Virus record (IMG/VR): IMGVR_UViG_2693429601_000003
DNA: 5,163 nucleotides
Reading direction: 5' to 3' (one strand)
Source of the DNA: a virus
Taxonomy: Duplodnaviria > Heunggongvirae > Uroviricota > Caudoviricetes
Numbering within the stretch: position 1 is the first letter of the stretch; each line of letters opens with the position of its first letter. Below the pieces are notes generated by a model. It saw only the letters and a list, made by a program, of their open reading frames with translations, was not told the origin of the DNA and did no database searches. Shown piece by piece: positions 654 through 5,163 of the stretch. The translations under genes and the position numbers were made by a program.

Positions 654-1079
654 TCAATTTCCCGCACGTCCGGCAAACTGACTGGCCTGTGATCCTGATG
701 GTTCACGCTCAACGTACCTGTCCATTTCCAGCTTTACTCCCTGCATGATCAACATCCCCTCAATAACACCTTCTGCTTTTTGCAGTACCCGCCCGGCCCA
801 GCAATCAGAGCGCCCATGCTTACGGCCCAGTGACATAAGCGTCATCCCGAACACATAATAATCATACAGAAAATCATGCAAATCGCTGTTGTTGACGTTC
901 AGTTGCGCCATGCAATTGCTGATAATCAGCGCATCGTCATCGGTACACTGAGGCCGTGATTTAACCTTTGACGGGATCAGCCCCTTAAATCCGGCGGCAA
1001 TGGGCGACCAGCTCACATCCTCATGATTATTGGCCACCCATGCGCCCCAGCGTTCAAGCACCTGCTGAATATCACGCAT
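654..1079 (-). CDS. Phage antitermination protein Q (QuuD-like family), 141 aa
   Basis: [22 protein letters not shown]... matches what I recall of the DLP12 QuuD-type Q antiterminator. I place the start at the internal ATG 1079 (SD-like AAGGGGAAAG upstream, 8-nt overlap with the ninH stop) rather than the track's 1163, which would overlap ninH by 92 nt. Confidence 0.85.
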
Positions 1080-1272
1080 CAGAGTCTTTCCCCTTATCCC
1101 ATCCACGGTGAACCATAAGGACACCGTTGACGACGGCGTGCCGTTTGCCTTCTTTATCGCCAATATATTTTCTGACCGTGTTGCGACTACAGTTCAGTAT
1201 TCTGGCTACCTCGGTCTGATTTTCATATGCCTCAACGAGCATGTCAGGAATGGTTTTTACTGTGAACGTCAT
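1072..1272 (-). CDS. ninH: NinH, small HTH DNA-binding protein of the lambdoid nin region
   Basis: [36 protein letters not shown]... closely resembles lambda NinH. GAGG SD; the start ATG overlaps the ninG stop (ATGA). Confidence 0.9.
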
Positions 1273-1874
1273 GCGGCCTCACTTCTGCTGTTTCGCAGGT
1301 CTTTGAGTTTCTGTTGGTACTCTGCCTTGATGGCCCTGCACTCTTCGACAGTCCAGCGATGGCGGTTATGGTTTGATTCGATTTCGTCTACTGCTTCCTG
1401 CCCGATGCGGTTAATCAGTTCGACGCGATACGGAACGAGATTTCCGCTTTTGTGCTGGTTGCACACCACGCATTGCTTGTGAATATTGCGTTCATCAAAT
1501 CGGAGTTGAGGCGCCGCAGCAGTTGTCCGGTAATGTCCGGCATCCCACTGAGCAGACGTGAGCGTTCCGCACGAGATACATGGTAAGTCGCGGTCTCTTT
1601 CTCTGATGAAGGCGTTTACGGCTTGTTGGGCTTGTTTAATCCAGTAACTGCGGGGCTTTAAGGCGAGTTTTCGAATCTTAATTTTATCTTTCTGTTTCTG
1701 CTCCTCTCGTCGTCGTTTCTTCTCTGCTGTTTTTTCCGCCTTTTCGCGTTCTTTATTTCGTCGTTCGAGCGCTAATTTAGTTCCGTGTTCCGGGCTGCAC
1801 CACCACTGATTTGAGAATGCCGGGTGAAACCATTCCTTACAGATTTTGCATTTCCTTCGCGCTGGTTTAGCCAT
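1269..1874 (-). CDS. ninG: NinG / Rap recombination-associated structure-specific endonuclease
   Basis: [30 protein letters not shown]... and the cysteine/histidine pattern match lambda NinG (Rap). GGGGAGG SD; the start overlaps the upstream stop (TAATG). Confidence 0.9.
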
Positions 1875-2602
1875 TAAGCAGCCTCCCCTGTTACTTTAAG
1901 CATTCCGTTATCTAGCAGCTTTCTTGTCAGCCACTGTTGACCACGCCCGGTGATTTTTGTGGTGAACGATATCTGTATTCCGTGATTTGTGTTGACCGCT
2001 GTTTCTTTCACTGTGAAATAGCCACGATCCATATATTCCTGCATTGGCACATTGCGCCGGGAGCCTGAAGCAATAAGGATTTTGTGATCGCGCATCCACG
2101 CAAACAGTTTGTTTGGACCAATACCAACAACCTTTGCAAAGTTTCCAATCAAAATTCCGCTGGACTCGCCAACGCGATCGGCAAACTCAACTTTAGGTGC
2201 TGCGAGAGCAAGCTGTTTCTCCAGTTCAGCCTTCTGGTCTTCAAGGTCGGCCGCAAGGCGCAATGCCTCAGAAAAGGTTTGTGGTATTTTCGCGGTTGCC
2301 CCTTCGAGTTCTCGCCAGCGGTCAACAAGGCGAGCGGTGAATTCCGGCGACAACTGGGCAACGACAATAATGCTGTCGCGCTTACCTTGTTCGCCCTCAA
2401 AAACGTAAGCCTCTACGCCACGAAGTAATCCTAAGTTATTGATTTTTTCGAAAACCACCATTGGGGGATTTCGGATCACACCTCGAACCGCCAGTCGTTC
2501 AATGGATTGTTTCACCTTGTCATGACGACTTCCCACCAACTCAGCGATTTCAATGCTTGTCATTTTGATGGCATTGCTATTTATCAGCTCATTCATTGTC
2601 AT
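1874..2602 (-). CDS. Roi-like phage DNA-binding/antirepressor protein (Rha-type N-terminal domain, KilA-C/ANT-type C-terminal domain)
   Basis: N-terminal [24 protein letters not shown] is Rha-like; C-terminal [37 protein letters not shown] is KilA-C/ANT-like. GAGAGGA SD before the ATG at 2602. Confidence 0.8.
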
Positions 2603-2629
2603 GTCCTCTCACATTGAAAATTCAGTAAT

Positions 2630-2657
2630 AAAAAACCCAGCCGAAGCTGGGTTTGTT
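2630..2657 (-). terminator. Rho-independent terminator (potentially bidirectional) between the ORF6N gene and the roi-like gene
   Basis: Minus strand reads AACAAACCCAGC-TTCG-GCTGGGTTTTTT: GC-rich stem, UUCG tetraloop, six U. Plus strand has the same hairpin followed by TTTGTT. Confidence 0.7.
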
Positions 2658-2670
2658 AAGTTGTCAATTG

Positions 2671-3348
2671 TCAGTAGCGATGCAGTGAAGGCGGCAACTC
2701 TTTGTTCTTAAGCCTTACCCATGCGGAAAGGTTCGTTGGTCCGTCTGGCTCATTAATATCAACATCTCGTGTGTGGTTGATTAAAACATCTCTCGCCATT
2801 CCGATAACATACGAAAACTCATGACCGTAGTCGTAGCATCTGCCGGAATAGTTCGATTGAATTTGTTTTAGCGCCGGATACAGTTCGCGGAATAATGCCT
2901 GTGAGCGGTTAGCATAATCCCATAACCATACAAGGCTGTTTGCTTCTTTTGCGGAAAGCTCGTTGGTGCTCTTCTCTTGTTTGCCAGTATTTTTCTTGCA
3001 CTGGCTGAAATAGCAGTCTTCCAGTTTTTCGAACACATCCCACGCCTGATCGGTTTCGAGCATTTTGGCGTGACGGGCTGCTCCGCGTTCTGTCCAGAGG
3101 ATGAGGGAGCGGGCATTTTTACCAACTAACCCGATTGTTTCGGGTCTGTTCTTAAACTCGCGTAATTCGTTTTTTTCAATTTTAAAGTAATGCTTTCCGG
3201 GCATGAATCGCGTCGTGTTGTTCAGAAAGTTATCAGAAATGTTTTTGATTTTTGTTCCGTAAAGGTGAGCCAACAGTTCAGTAGTAATTACGGGGATCTG
3301 GTTATAGGTAACAGGGGAAAGGTTTTCGACAGAAATTTGAACAGCCAT
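2671..3348 (-). CDS. ORF6N-domain protein (antirepressor-like N-terminal DNA-binding domain) with an unrecognised C-terminal half
   Basis: N-terminal [48 protein letters not shown] fits the ORF6N pattern; residues ~120-225 have no match I recognise. GAGGT SD 4 nt before the ATG at 3348. Confidence 0.8.
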
Positions 3349-3389
3349 AATGACCTCGCGTTTCGATAATTTTTACCTCGCCACCGTCA

Positions 3390-3431
3390 GGTGCTAATCA
3401 TCGTGGTGGCGAACTGTGCGGGGTTAGCACT
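3390..3431. promoter_or_regulatory. Candidate operator: imperfect inverted repeat GGTGCTAATC-N22-GGTTAGCACT upstream of the ORF6N gene; a third direct copy of GGTGCTAATC lies at 3555-3564
   Basis: Exact 10-mer GGTGCTAATC occurs at 3390-3399 and 3555-3564; an inverted 8/10 copy at 3422-3431. A weak sigma70-like pair on the minus strand (TTAGCA at 3397..3392, A-rich -10 around 3375..3369) overlaps the motif. Confidence 0.25.
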
Positions 3432-3512
3432 ACCGGTCGAAACATCCGGCGAGCCTTTCGGCTCCCCCACACAGCCCGCCATAAATCGCGAATGTGACTG
3501 TGCTTAGCGCAT

Positions 3513-3533
3513 AAAAAAACCGCCAGCGCGGTT
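3513..3533 (-). terminator. Candidate rho-independent terminator downstream of ninE
   Basis: Minus strand reads AACCGC-GCTG-GCGGTT followed by seven T; short stem, so moderate confidence. Confidence 0.4.
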
Positions 3534-3623
3534 ATGCACCGTTTCGATATCCGGGGTGCTAATCCCGACGCCAGATTTTGCTGGCGCGTGAGGAATATAG
3601 CCCCGAATAAATCATCGCGTCAA

Positions 3624-3806
3624 TCACCTTGTTTTCCTCGCACGATGTCTTAGCCACCGGATATCCCACAGGTGAGCCGTGTAGTTGAAGGTTTTTACGT
3701 CAGATTCTTTTGGGATTGGCTTGCGTTTATTTCTGGAGCGTTTCGTTGGAAGGTATTTGCAGTTTTCGCAGATGATGTCGGTGATGCTTCTTTGCTGTCG
3801 CCTCAT
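3624..3806 (-). CDS. ninE: NinE, 60 aa
   Basis: [60 protein letters not shown] resembles lambda/DLP12 NinE. Start at the internal ATG 3806 with CAGGAGGG SD; ATGA overlap with the upstream dam stop. The track's 90-aa call is an upstream extension. Confidence 0.85.
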
Positions 3807-4293
3807 GCCGCCCTCCTGACGCCCTGCCCGATCGCCATCAATGCCGCTTTGGATACAGTAGTAAACATTCGTCGAGGACTGATGAACGGTCGCCAAATCA
3901 GCAGCATGGAGCCTTTGCTGTTTCCCTTCTTCTCCAGCCCTGTCGATGGTTCGATAAAATTAATCCGTCCATCAGTGATAATGCGAACTTCGTCGACACT
4001 CTCCAGAGCCTTGCTGAACCATCCGACTGACATATCCTCTGGCACAAGCATCACTACCGTCTGTCGCTGTTGTATGCACTGCTCAGCGGCTTTTTCCACC
4101 CACGGCCTGATATTGCTGTACGGTGGGTTATTCCAGATTGCACCGTGGCTTATCCACTCAGAATTTAGCGCGTCGTCGGCCTCAGTTAAGAATCCAGCCA
4201 GAATCCAAACTCAATATCCAGTGCATCAAAAAGCCAAAGCGGCGTTTGCCAGCAGTCCTTGTCGTGTGATGGCGTATTTGATTTGATAGTCAT
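3803..4293 (-). pseudogene. Dam-family (phage-type) DNA N6-adenine methyltransferase, disrupted by a frameshift
   Basis: ATG 4293..4291 (ATGA-coupled to the ninB stop, AAGGGAGAG SD) opens a 35-codon frame MTIKSNTPSHDKDCWQTPLWLFDALDIEFGFWLDS that stops at 4188..4186. The catalytic part (…AIWNNPPYSNIRPWVEKAAEQ…VVMLVPEDMSVGWF…, NPPY motif) continues in another frame from 4210 to the stop at 3805..3803. Confidence 0.6.
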
Positions 4294-4736
4294 GCAGCTC
4301 TCCCTTTTCGTTGTGACCATTCATACTCTCGCCAGGAGTCATCACTCCACCGCACGTTGCGCTCTGAGCCGAACCAGAACATGATTTCGATAAGCTCAGT
4401 CATGCTGGCCTTCCGCATTTTGCTGGTACGCACGCCAAGCATGACAACGCCACCGTCGATACCAGGCACACTTCGTTGCTCCAGTTTTTTGGTCTTAAGC
4501 CACAGGGCAGTGAACAGGTCTTTCCAGTCTTCCGGCGCCAGCCGTTGACCATGCCATAGCACCTGACGCGAAACATCGTTCAGCATCGGCCACATACGGT
4601 CATTCTGCGCTTTGCTGCGCTTGGGTTCTTTAACGTGGACTTCGTGGGGTGACTTGTCGTCGATGGGTAGTGAGAGAATGGCGTCTATGGCGTTATTTCT
4701 GATTGCTTCGTTGCGAAGCAGAAAGGTTTGCTTCAT
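4290..4736 (-). CDS. ninB: NinB (Orf-family recombination mediator; DLP12 YbcN-like), 148 aa
   Basis: MKQTFLLRNEAIRNNAIDAIL…NDRMWPMLNDVSRQVLWHGQRL…WSDDSWREYEWSQRKGRAA is colinear with lambda NinB as I recall it. Start at the internal ATG 4736 (GGAG about 8 nt upstream); the track's 182-aa call is an upstream extension. Confidence 0.9.
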   Translation of the reverse strand: MKQTFLLRNEAIRNNAIDAILSLPIDDKSPHEVHVKEPKRSKAQNDRMWPMLNDVSRQVLWHGQRLAPEDWKDLFTALWLKTKKLEQRSVPGIDGGVVMLGVRTSKMRKASMTELIEIMFWFGSERNVRWSDDSWREYEWSQRKGRAA

Positions 4737-4929
4737 CTCCTGCTCTCCGGTTCCATTTTTCAGCCGCCGCAGCAACTGATGGTGCCCATGCCCCCCTGGC
4801 TTCACAGAGGTCACATTCTGCATAGCCCCACACATCAATATTTATTCCGGCCTCAACCCACAGACGAGCATTACCGCCGCAAAACGGACATTCTTTTAGC
4901 TTTGGCTGGGTTAATGATAGGTCGCTCAT
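4693..4929 (-). CDS. Lar-family restriction alleviation protein (RalR-like), 78 aa
   Basis: MSDLSLTQPKLKECPFCGGNARLWVEAG…YAECDLCEARGAWAPSVAAAAEKWNRR carries the CPFCG…C..C…WN.R pattern of Lar/RalR. Strong SD AAGGAG 5 nt before the ATG at 4929. Its 3' end overlaps the ninB start by 44 nt in another frame. Confidence 0.75.
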   Translation of the reverse strand: MSDLSLTQPKLKECPFCGGNARLWVEAGINIDVWGYAECDLCEARGAWAPSVAAAAEKWNRRAGDEANLSASQRSNQK

Positions 4930-4939
4930 GCTCACTCCT

Positions 4940-5155
4940 TCACTTAAAATCCAGACTCCGGATAATTCTGTTGCGCTGAAACTCATTGTTGAGTTTGAAC
5001 AACCGTCGAAGAACACGGTCACGCGGATAGCGTCGTGCGGCAGGTGAATGCTCATACAACTCATCAAGCGGCAAACTGGACGATGAACGATACCGATACC
5101 AACGCACCAACTCTTCACGAAAATTAGCCCTGACAAGCTCAGCTATCGTACTCAT
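4940..5155 (-). CDS. Hypothetical small Arg-rich protein (71 aa), unknown function
   Basis: ORF from the track; same strand and tight spacing with downstream lar (its stop lies in the lar SD region). Only a weak AAGAA SD is visible before the window ends; no family recognised. Confidence 0.4.
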   Translation of the reverse strand: MSTIAELVRANFREELVRWYRYRSSSSLPLDELYEHSPAARRYPRDRVLRRLFKLNNEFQRNRIIRSLDFK

Positions 5156-5163
5156 TTCTTAAA

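Follow-up and report, generated by a model that had tools for sequence, protein, structure and literature searches.

The ant cassette at the ninE-roi junction of a phi24B-like lambdoid prophage is probably an IsrK-C4-ant operon of the P1 immI/Gifsy-1 isrK type

We analyzed a 5,163-nt stretch of phage DNA (the window) and found that positions 2627 to 3623 of its minus strand very probably form one operon of the P1 immI/Gifsy-1 isrK type. With similar confidence, we place this operon in the gap that separates ninE from roi in a phi24B-like lambdoid prophage of the Stx type. Its 225-aa gene is the antirepressor gene ant of Shiga-toxin-type lambdoid phages, which has been annotated before, and the DNA ahead of ant holds the genes of IsrK and a C4-type antisense RNA, both of them small RNAs known from earlier work. 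Therefore, the cassette is real but ordinary and previously described; it belongs to a known system and adds no new function. These results correct an annotation-level reading and are not a discovery.

RESULTS

The 225-aa protein is an Ant-type antirepressor

The initial annotation was right in calling a 225-aa gene with its own Shine-Dalgarno (SD) sequence, as GAGG (3357 to 3354) stands 5 nt ahead of the ATG. The gene is part of the pR operon and shares its strand with ninB-ninE-roi-ninG-Q. The N-terminal ORF6N domain had also been recognized correctly. The C-terminal half had been described as uncharacterized; instead, it matched Pfam P22_AR_C and is nearly identical to P22 Ant, with 91% identity between the last 104 residues of the window protein (122 to 225) and P22 Ant residues 197 to 300. 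PHROG 377, “anti-repressor Ant,” matched the full length of the protein (E = 2e-81). phi24B Ant is 92% identical over the whole protein, and Gifsy-1 AnrP is 87% identical to residues 1 to 124, the ORF6N part. AnrP and P22 Ant have just one domain each in common with the window Ant. Database searches returned 6,423 homologues, and identical proteins carry the names “phage antirepressor Ant” or “P22AR C-terminal domain-containing protein.” An antirepressor was one of the functions initially guessed for this gene, and that guess agrees with its identity.

The 225-aa protein matched no family in NCBIfam, and a sequence search against solved structures returned chance matches only (E ≥ 0.36). A profile search and structure prediction for the C-terminal half had been proposed initially; the former gave the P22_AR_C match, and the latter left this domain below pLDDT 60. 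The AlphaFold2 input was a shallow alignment, since its 14 sequences are 80 to 97% identical. The resulting model had a mean pLDDT of 60.8, with 70 to 88 in the N-domain and less than 50 at residues 181 to 225. Using this weak model, Foldseek found nothing in the PDB at E up to 0.001; its best match, a Ski-like domain on the N-domain, was not significant (E = 0.37).

An intrinsic terminator follows ant, as the initial annotation had proposed. It comprises a 9-bp stem with a UUCG loop (2654 to 2633) and then a U-run (−15.1 kcal/mol; z = −4.35), and 0 of 200 shuffled sequences folded equally well. In sequence, the hairpin and U-run agree with the terminator annotated for ant in phage P22. The features of the operon are collected in Table 1.

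Table 1. Features of the IsrK-C4-ant region in the window
Feature	Coordinates	Strand	Basis
Likely operon promoter (PisrK homologue)	3594-3623	-	Promoter scan, conserved hexamers, Gifsy-1 homology
IsrK-type sRNA, a1/b1 decoy element	3513-3587	-	Rfam RF01394 and RF03163, fold, terminator scan
C4-type antisense RNA gene	3402-3486	-	Rfam RF01695, fold, alignment
31-codon ORF, AUG in 5' strand of C4	3387-3482	-	Positional equivalent of Gifsy-1 orf45
Alternative hairpin, a2 in loop	3378-3412	-	Fold, comparison of 11 loci
ant translation-initiation leader, second target set	3354-3397	-	Complementarity to a'/b', co-variation, P1 layout
ant, 225-aa antirepressor-type protein	2671-3348	-	Pfam, PHROG, homologue identity
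ORF6N domain of Ant	aa 12-96 (nt 3315-3061)	-	Pfam, E = 2e-20
P22_AR_C domain of Ant	aa 125-197 (nt 2976-2758)	-	Pfam, E = 8e-30, profile 1-73 of 73
Intrinsic terminator of ant	2627-2654	-	Terminator scan, shuffling, P22 match

Two small RNA genes precede ant

Upstream of ant, Rfam matches to isrK, c4-a1b1, and C4 scored above their gathering thresholds, in that order, and the leader folded much better than its shuffled versions (z = −5.15). Weak matches to STnc370 (plus strand, 2591 to 2661), rsmX, and ceN48 were dismissed because they scored far below gathering. No tRNA or tmRNA was detected in the 5,163-nt window.

The likely promoter of the operon begins immediately 3' of the ninE stop codon (3626 to 3624). 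Its −35 hexamer is TTGACG (3623 to 3618) and its −10 hexamer is TATATT (3599 to 3594), separated by an 18-nt spacer. In 8 of 10 loci, a TTGAC/TATATT pair is spaced identically relative to IsrK. Gifsy-1 is one of the eight, and there the isrK promoter has been shown experimentally to drive anrP transcription (PMC4825925). By this homology, the site is likely to act as a promoter in the window phage. Nothing else on the minus strand close to the cassette resembles a promoter. A promoter/operator had been placed initially at 3349 to 3512; that interval has no sigma-70-like minus-strand site and holds the C4 RNA gene and antisense targets instead.

The IsrK match scored 76.6 bits against a gathering score of 50 (E = 1e-15), and c4-a1b1 matched positions 3548 to 3600 with 50.6 bits (gathering score, 46.7). 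IsrK was predicted to form three hairpins, the last of which is an intrinsic terminator in both the fold and the terminator scan. Element a1 (UUAGCAC, 3562 to 3556) lies in the loop of hairpin 2, and b1 (UCGAAACG, 3547 to 3540) also lies within IsrK. The upstream terminator that had been called is a real hairpin (3533 to 3518) with a U-run. However, it does not bracket the cassette but is the internal terminator of IsrK. Hfq binding and partial read-through of this terminator to yield antirepressor mRNA, with trans-activation of its translation, have been reported in Gifsy-1 only (PMC4825925).

The C4 gene matched RF01695 over the full model, positions 1 to 87 (75.1 bits; gathering score, 45; E = 6e-14). 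It folds into two hairpins inside a long outer stem (minimum free energy, −49.1 kcal/mol), which is the Rfam topology, and ends in a tRNA-like GCCACCA. Element b' (UGUUUCGA, 3444 to 3437) forms the loop of hairpin 2, and a' (GUGCUAA, 3430 to 3424) is a single-stranded stretch 3' of that hairpin. In an alignment of nine sequences (the window and eight relatives, including P1 and Gifsy-1), 10 of the 27 pairs showed compensatory changes on both sides. P1 C4 is a mature RNA of about 77 nt cut from a precursor, with RNase P acting at the 5' end; in the window, the GCCACCA end is the one hint of such processing that the sequence gives. For Gifsy-1, a processed RNA of about 80 nt, STnc1160, has been reported.

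The antisense elements co-vary with both target sets

C4 has two sets of potential targets, a1/b1 in IsrK and a2/b2 in the ant leader, each an exact 7- to 8-nt complement of a' and b'. In the leader, a2 (UUAGCAC) occupies 3397 to 3391 and b2 (UCGAAACG) occupies 3366 to 3359, so that b2 ends 1 to 2 nt (8-mer) or 3 nt (7-mer core) ahead of the ant SD. The b2 elements of P27, phiV10, and YpM41 reach into the SD or the AUG. Each 7-mer occurs three times in the window (0.47 expected) and the 8-mer occurs twice (0.20 expected), with all copies in the leader.

We compared pairing at 11 loci, comprising 10 isrK-C4 loci (including Gifsy-1) and P1. The 10 isrK-C4 loci carry eight types of b' loop and four types of a' segment, and both targets match each time. 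P1 adds one more a'/b' pair with matching targets. The target positions are fixed in the 10 loci, at nt 26 to 32 and about 41 to 49 of IsrK and at nt 4 to 12 and about 31 to 58 downstream. Like the sequence features and family memberships, this co-variation of a'/b' with both target sets is observed directly. Since it extends over eight specificity types, the RNA pairings are under ongoing selection. We also mapped the compensatory mutants of Gifsy-1 (PMC4825925, Table 1D) onto the Gifsy-1 sequences, which placed G28A/C162U and G31A/C159U within a1 and a'.

Alternatively, UCGCCACC (3412 to 3405), which provides the 3' side of the outer stem in C4, can pair with GGUGGCGA (3385 to 3378). This alternative hairpin was found in 11 of 11 loci, including P1, and shows a compensatory difference, with UCGCCACC/GGUGGCGA in the window and UCACCACC/GGUGGUGA elsewhere. 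We infer that it competes with the C4 fold in the unprocessed transcript.

A 31-codon ORF runs over C4 in the window. The equivalent ORF in 10 loci ranges from 8 to 64 codons or is open, and its stop position is not conserved; on these grounds, we rejected it as a peptide gene, and it is probably not a conserved coding gene. Its ATGA overlap with the antirepressor gene is confined to Gifsy-1, and in the window 38 nt separate its stop from the downstream ant ATG.

The cassette is found at variable positions with variable cargo

A comparison of gene content at this position among lambdoid prophages had been proposed initially, and the content proved to vary. The cassette is missing from lambda, where the order is ninE-ninF-ninG, and the ninE-roi position holds different alleles in VT2-Sakai, 2851, P27, and Nil2. 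The isrK-C4-antirepressor order recurs in nine more loci, from Stx phages, a Yersinia phage, phiV10, APSE-3, and Gifsy-1. Some of these are placed elsewhere: after Q in Gifsy-1, next to a tail fibre gene in phiV10, and at another site in APSE-3. In the downstream genes of homologous loci, ORF6N, Bro-N, Rha, and KilAC domains are shuffled, and the Yersinia phage YpM41 locus has an Ash-family ORF.

The operon is a mobile module and has no counterpart in lambda. The cassette has its own promoter-like site and terminator, its cargo varies, and it also lies within the path of pR transcription. In describing an independent accessory insertion, the initial annotation caught its autonomy and mobility but missed that the gene was already annotated as ant. 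The predicted function of the cassette is control of phage immunity and not a benefit to the host.

The window type is intact in several phages at 99.7 to 100% identity. It is a minority type, as 15 of 256 phage records have a leader at least 95% identical to the window/phi24B type. Individual E. coli genomes contain up to six matches to the ant cassette, counted as leader plus gene.

DISCUSSION

The activities that we assign to the window locus, including binding of Ant to the CI of its own phage, are taken from homologues. We propose that the promoter, either constitutive or stress responsive, would fire with a start at about 3587, and that the majority of transcripts would end at the IsrK terminator (3533 to 3513) to give an IsrK of about 75 nt. 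Some read-through, together with N-antiterminated transcripts from pR, would yield the C4-type RNA (3486 to 3402) and the ant mRNA, with C4 probably excised as an RNA of about 80 nt. The a' and b' elements of C4 would meet their complements a2 and b2 shortly before the ant SD and, by pairing with them, leave ant untranslated in the lysogen. The a1 and b1 elements of IsrK would serve as decoys; in cis with C4, they would hold the read-through RNA in an inactive fold. Excess IsrK in trans would capture a' and b', freeing the ant ribosome-binding site and turning translation on. Ant, with its ORF6N and P22_AR_C domains, would then bind and inactivate the prophage repressor, and induction would be promoted or accelerated.

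Several of these steps have been demonstrated in homologues. In Gifsy-1, promoter activity, read-through of the IsrK terminator to make the antirepressor mRNA, translational silence, and AnrP-driven induction were shown, as were a1:a' pairing by compensatory mutants and IsrK activation in trans (PMC4825925). In P1, C4 represses through a2/b2 (P1 record annotation and review PMC12197685). In phi24B, knocking out ant impaired induction, which agrees with the operon model, but the defect was only partial and superinfection was unaffected (PMC3064807), which speaks against it. One Gifsy-1 result fits poorly with a simple scheme in which C4 represses and IsrK titrates, as constitutive STnc1160 enhanced IsrK toxicity instead of relieving it (PMC4825925). 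Translational coupling, reported as necessary for anrP, may not apply in the window, given that there is no icd-like ORF and no stop/start overlap.

Following the model of Fogg et al., the RNA elements could be mostly vestigial and ant a delayed-early gene expressed from pR by N-antiterminated polymerase, which we consider improbable. The second part of that model, in which Ant works only after induction has started and hastens removal of CI, seems to us equally improbable. The position of ant within the pR operon, on the ninB-ninE-roi-ninG-Q strand, agrees with this model. So does the phi24B knockout, whose phenotype is partial and was seen only after norfloxacin induction: deletion of ant lowered late expression from pR' to about 30%, and pBAD-ant largely restored it (PMC3064807). 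However, vestigial RNAs are at odds with the conserved promoter hexamers, with eight specificity types in which a' and b' co-vary with both target sets, and with a window type kept intact in several phages.

It is very unlikely that the protein is a shuffled-domain DNA-binding regulator of the KilA-N/Bro-N/ORF6N kind that acts on something other than the resident CI, with “Ant” merely an inherited annotation. The domain shuffling among homologous loci, the nonsignificant Ski-like (DNA-binding-type) hint for the N-domain, and the partial phi24B phenotype would suit such a protein, as would the finding that AnrP raises antQ transcription in Gifsy-1 (PMC4825925). A different target, e.g., the repressor of another prophage or host or phage transcription, is just as doubtful. 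P22 Ant, which shares the C-terminal domain at 91% identity, is the archetypal repressor-binding antirepressor; AnrP expression induced Gifsy-1; and P1 Ant has the same operon layout.

The initial reading, an accessory moron with ORF6N, a novel C-terminal domain, its own promoter/operator at 3349 to 3512, two bracketing terminators, and an anti-defence or superinfection exclusion function, has very little left in its favor: the cassette is autonomous, missing from lambda, and differently placed in other phages, its hairpin terminators are real, and the solved-structure search gave no structure, but it is largely refuted by the C4 match, P22_AR_C, and the P22 Ant identity, 3349 to 3512 is a C4 RNA gene without a promoter-like site, the upstream terminator sits within the operon leader, and deletion of phi24B ant left superinfection unaffected (PMC3064807).

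Returning to the IsrK-C4-ant operon, the module could plausibly control how Shiga-toxin prophages are induced, be it spontaneously or under stress. We tentatively suggest, with considerable reservation, that the variable a'/b' loops encode a second, RNA-based immunity specificity, like the one that sets P1 apart from P7, in lambdoid prophages of the Stx type and others. With up to six ant cassette matches per E. coli genome, IsrK and C4 could act on the antirepressors of other prophages in the cell, but only where these share their type. If so, the IsrK (decoy) and C4 (repressor) of one prophage would silence or trigger the antirepressors of same-type neighbors, and RNA-mediated cross talk would control SOS-independent induction of Stx phages. 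The IsrK mechanism, described as an sRNA acting on its own mRNA, would then be reread as an anti-antisense decoy for C4 RNA. The a'/b' types would make it simple to predict from sequence which prophages in one cell could regulate each other. The IsrK/C4 pair is known, yet it is unannotated in most phage records; genome scans should include RNA family searches before promoters, operators, or terminators are called in the intergenic DNA of phages.

Comparison with known systems

The ant element of phi24B (Fogg et al., 2011; PMC3064807) is essentially the same as that of the window. The cassettes are 94.7% identical and share the ninE-ant-roi-ninG context. The phi24B leader is of the window a'/b' type and nearly identical, with one T different in the U-run of the IsrK terminator; its small RNAs are unannotated in the phi24B record. 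In the window, the dam gene is broken and the Q/late region is not that of phi24B.

The isrK-orf45-anrP-isrJ locus of Gifsy-1 (Hershko-Shalev et al., 2016; PMC4825925) shares its promoter hexamers with the window. The elements that follow also come in the window order: IsrK and its terminator, then a C4-like RNA (STnc1160/orf45'), then a2/b2 ahead of the SD. The ORF6N domains of the two antirepressors are 87% identical. The specificities differ, with a'/b' being ACGCCAA/CGGUGAU in Gifsy-1 and GUGCUAA/GUUUCGA in the window. AnrP has a different, shorter C terminus without P22_AR_C, and orf45 overlaps the anrP start (ATGA), whereas the 31-codon window ORF stops 38 nt upstream of ant. The Gifsy-1 locus lies after Q and the window locus between ninE and roi. 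Downstream of the antirepressor gene, Gifsy-1 has isrJ (100 bits) and the window has the P22-type terminator, with no Rfam match to isrJ there at any E value up to 1. The Gifsy-1 paper likens its locus to P4 CI/seqA, and P1 c4 is not mentioned in its text as searched for P1 terms (PMC4825925).

With P22 immI, the window shares the C-terminal 104 residues of Ant (91% identity) and the ant terminator hairpin and U-run. P22 Ant begins with P22_AR_N instead of ORF6N, and its gene lies in the late region beside the tailspike gene. P22 ant is controlled by Mnt, Arc, and the sar antisense RNA, whereas the window has none of the three: sar gave no Rfam match there, and the region upstream of ant holds IsrK and C4 with no arc or mnt.

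The immI locus of P1 and P7 (c4 antisense RNA, icd, and ant1/ant2) encodes a C4 of the same Rfam family and fold as that of the window. According to the P1 record, the order a1,b1-c4-a2,b2 is the same, with b2 on the SD of icd. Differences are that the window has no Icd/Ash-like ORF, its ant starting 53 nt after C4; that P1 Ant has a KilAC (ANT) domain in place of ORF6N/P22_AR_C; that the P1 annotation, taken alone, lists no terminator between b1 and c4 where the window has that of IsrK; and that P1 is a plasmid prophage, whereas the window derives from a lambdoid phage. The P1 immI promoter carries a C1 operator; the CI gene and operators of the window phage lie beyond the 5,163 nt. In both, b' sits in the loop of C4 hairpin 2, a' lies 3' of it, and the antirepressor gene is downstream of C4. 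Specificity resides in a'/b', and the heteroimmunity of P1 and P7 is known to have this basis (review PMC12197685).

Ant and its P22-type C-terminal domain

The initial annotation described a 225-aa gene with its own SD, a downstream UUCG-loop terminator, and a C-terminal half of unknown family. That observation is real: the open reading frame, SD, and terminator are all present (see table). Its interpretation is partly right, with errors on the family of the C-terminal half and on what the upstream elements are. A Pfam search identified ORF6N at aa 12-96 (2e-20) and P22_AR_C at aa 125-197 (8e-30, profile matched in full). The C-terminal half thus belongs to a named family, and residues 122-225 share 91% identity with P22 Ant residues 197-300. 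Gifsy-1 AnrP/STM2616 shares 87% identity with residues 1-124, and phi24B Ant is 92% identical over the whole protein. PHROG 377 (“anti-repressor Ant”) matched end to end (E 2e-81), in agreement with the antirepressor role that had been among the early guesses. The database holds 6423 homologues, and identical copies bear the name “phage antirepressor Ant.” A sequence search of solved structures with the 225-aa protein gave no match. The AlphaFold2 model was confident only in the N-domain, and a PDB fold search with it returned nothing significant.

In sequence, the 3′ end of the gene, with its terminator hairpin and U-run, matched the ant terminator annotated in P22. These matches make the cassette a chimera, with a 5′ half like P1/Gifsy-1 and a 3′ half like P22 immI.

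IsrK and C4 in the ant leader

An Rfam scan of the window gave three matches above curated thresholds in the 275-nt leader, all on the strand of the gene. Based on these matches, the hairpin and U-run proposed as an upstream terminator are real but constitute the terminator of IsrK itself, and the proposed promoter/operator stretch (3349-3512) instead consists of the gene for C4 and the leader of ant. No sigma-70-like site was found on the gene's strand inside 3349-3512. The sole promoter-like site near the cassette has hexamers that are kept in 8 of the 10 isrK-C4 loci; its −35 hexamer follows straight on from the stop codon of ninE (3626-3624).

Features of the cassette and its leader (all on the minus strand)
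Feature	Position	Detail
Promoter-like site	3623-3594	TTGACG-18-TATATT
c4-a1b1	3548-3600	Rfam, 50.6 bits vs 46.7
isrK	3513-3587	Rfam, 76.6 bits vs 50
a1	3562-3556	Exact complement of a′, in IsrK hairpin-2 loop
b1	3547-3540	Exact complement of b′
Upstream hairpin	3533-3518	U-run
C4 antisense RNA	3402-3486	Rfam, 75.1 bits vs 45
b′	3444-3437	UGUUUCGA, loop of C4 hairpin 2
a′	3430-3424	GUGCUAA, single strand 3′ of hairpin 2
Alternative hairpin	3412-3405, 3385-3378	Arms, a2 in loop
a2	3397-3391	Complement of a′
b2	3366-3359	Complement of b′, ending 1-3 nt ahead of ant SD
ant SD	3357-3354	GAGG
ant	2671-3348	225 aa
ant terminator	Stem 2654-2633	UUCG loop, U-run; −15.1 kcal/mol, z −4.35

We named a′ and b′ after P1's own annotation. 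The APSE-3 record uses opposite labels (hairpin-2 loop as a′, 3′ single strand as b′), and care is needed when comparing papers. All copies of the pairing words in the 5163-nt window lie within the leader (3 versus 0.47 expected and 2 versus 0.20 expected). An alternative hairpin presenting a2 is conserved in the window, fetched loci L002-L010, and L012 (P1); the window differs from the other loci there by a compensatory change. One arm comes from the 3′ strand of the outer C4 stem, and this hairpin and the C4 fold must therefore be in competition, which suggests a conformational switch between C4 folding and target presentation in unprocessed transcripts.

Comparison across loci

We fetched loci from Nil2, VT2-Sakai, 2851, P27, Stx2a phage JNE122536, Yersinia phage vB_YpM_41, phiV10, APSE-3, Gifsy-1, and P1. 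The order isrK, C4, antirepressor-type gene was found in every fetched locus other than P1, which has the same a1, b1-c4-a2, b2 layout according to its own record annotation rather than an Rfam scan. The 10 isrK-C4 loci have 8 distinct b′ loops and 4 distinct a′ segments, with matching complements in both targets at the same positions in 10/10; P1 adds one more a′/b′ type, also with matching targets. The C4 fold has compensatory changes in 10 of 27 pairs. These sequence comparisons provide strong evidence that the a′/b′ pairings are under selection. An ORF from an AUG inside C4 (31 codons in the window; orf45 in Gifsy-1) ranges in length between 8 and 64 codons with an unconserved stop; what is conserved is therefore the RNA.

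The vB_YpM_41 locus (1594-3066) encodes C4, a 95-aa Ash/Icd-family ORF, and a 380-aa ORF6N+Rha protein, a P1-like c4-icd-ant order in which b2 overlaps the start codon, with a ryfA RNA match close by at 164-462.

Gene setting and mobility

Every gene of the window is on the minus strand, in the order Lar-like gene, NinB, broken Dam methylase, NinE, cassette, Roi (Rha + KilAC domains), NinG, NinH, Q, and hok/sok; by gene content, this is the nin region of a lambdoid prophage. Stx phages YYZ-2008, Stx2a_F451, phi24B, and Min27 are ~94% identical to 702-5163, and 1-701 falls outside the phi24B/YYZ-2008 match. The hok/sok-type toxin-antitoxin module (299-623) immediately follows Q, with an Rfam sok match at 449-623 (118 bits versus 59) and a 51-aa Hok-like ORF at 299-454. 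The dam gene (DNA N6-adenine methyltransferase, 3803-4293), between ninB and ninE, has lost ~37 nt near 4189-4191 relative to the phi24B Dam CDS, which shifts the frame and splits the gene into an N-terminal fragment that runs to ~4186 and a C-terminal ORF (3803-4099, Pfam Dam profile 77-167). The mechanical NinE ORF (3624-3896) has 90 aa from TTG, with Pfam NinE covering only aa 31-88; the gene probably begins at ~3806 with an ATG, which would give 60 aa and an overlap with the stop of dam. The roi gene (1874-2602) begins 31 nt past the ant terminator stem. Its product is an antirepressor-type mosaic of Rha (26.8 versus 29.9 bits, under the Pfam cutoff) and KilAC/ANT (E 4e-33) that matches PHROG 63 “anti-repressor Ant”; ant and roi are thus two antirepressor-class genes in tandem.

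The view of an autonomous, mobile cassette held up, and the content of this position varies among phages. Lambda has ninE-ninF-ninG with nothing between, VT2-Sakai a 171-aa ORF6N-only protein, 2851 a 251-aa AntA and then an IS, P27 a 224-aa ORF6N+P22_AR_C protein, and Nil2 an interrupted ant. The Nil2 insertion, a “bacterial retrotransposon” per its depositors, splits the gene into antA and antB and contains an Rfam sRNA-Xcc1 match (3291-3374, 79 bits). Elsewhere, the module follows Q in Gifsy-1 and sits beside the tail-fibre gene in phiV10. The cassette has matches in 319 phage records. Among 5426 complete E. coli genomes, 1416 have matches, with as many as 6 places in a single genome. The window leader type (≥95% identity) is carried by only 15 of 256 phage records; most have leaders 60-80% identical, with other a′/b′ types. 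Type-specific cross-talk between co-resident prophages is possible.

Proposed mechanism and known systems

We infer all activities of the mechanism at the window locus. IsrK would be made from the promoter at the ninE end, with C4 and ant carried on read-through transcripts or transcripts from pR. C4 pairing with a2/b2 would keep ant untranslated until abundant IsrK, bearing decoy targets, frees the ant RBS; Ant would then inactivate CI and promote induction.

In Gifsy-1, anrP is transcribed from the isrK promoter into a read-through mRNA that is translationally silent, and IsrK in trans raises translation >100-fold; a ~80-nt RNA is processed out of the read-through transcript, and AnrP induces the prophage (PMC4825925). 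We mapped G28A/C162U and G31A/C159U, compensatory pairs from PMC4825925, to positions inside a1 (IsrK nt 26-32) and a′ (C4 nt 56-62); on this mapping they validate a1:a′ pairing. As a caveat to the proposed scheme, constitutive STnc1160, the processed RNA, raised IsrK toxicity and gave no relief (PMC4825925). In P1, C4 binds around the RBS of the antirepressor operon and blocks translation (P1 record annotation; review PMC12197685). The window has neither an icd gene nor a stop/start overlap, and thus the coupling step of P1 and Gifsy-1 is missing. Deletion of phi24B ant left superinfection unaffected and reduced late-promoter activity after norfloxacin to ~30%, which pBAD-ant largely restored (PMC3064807). 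The phi24B leader has the same a′/b′ type as the window. Taken together, the element belongs to a type that has already been described and differs little from the phi24B ant locus.
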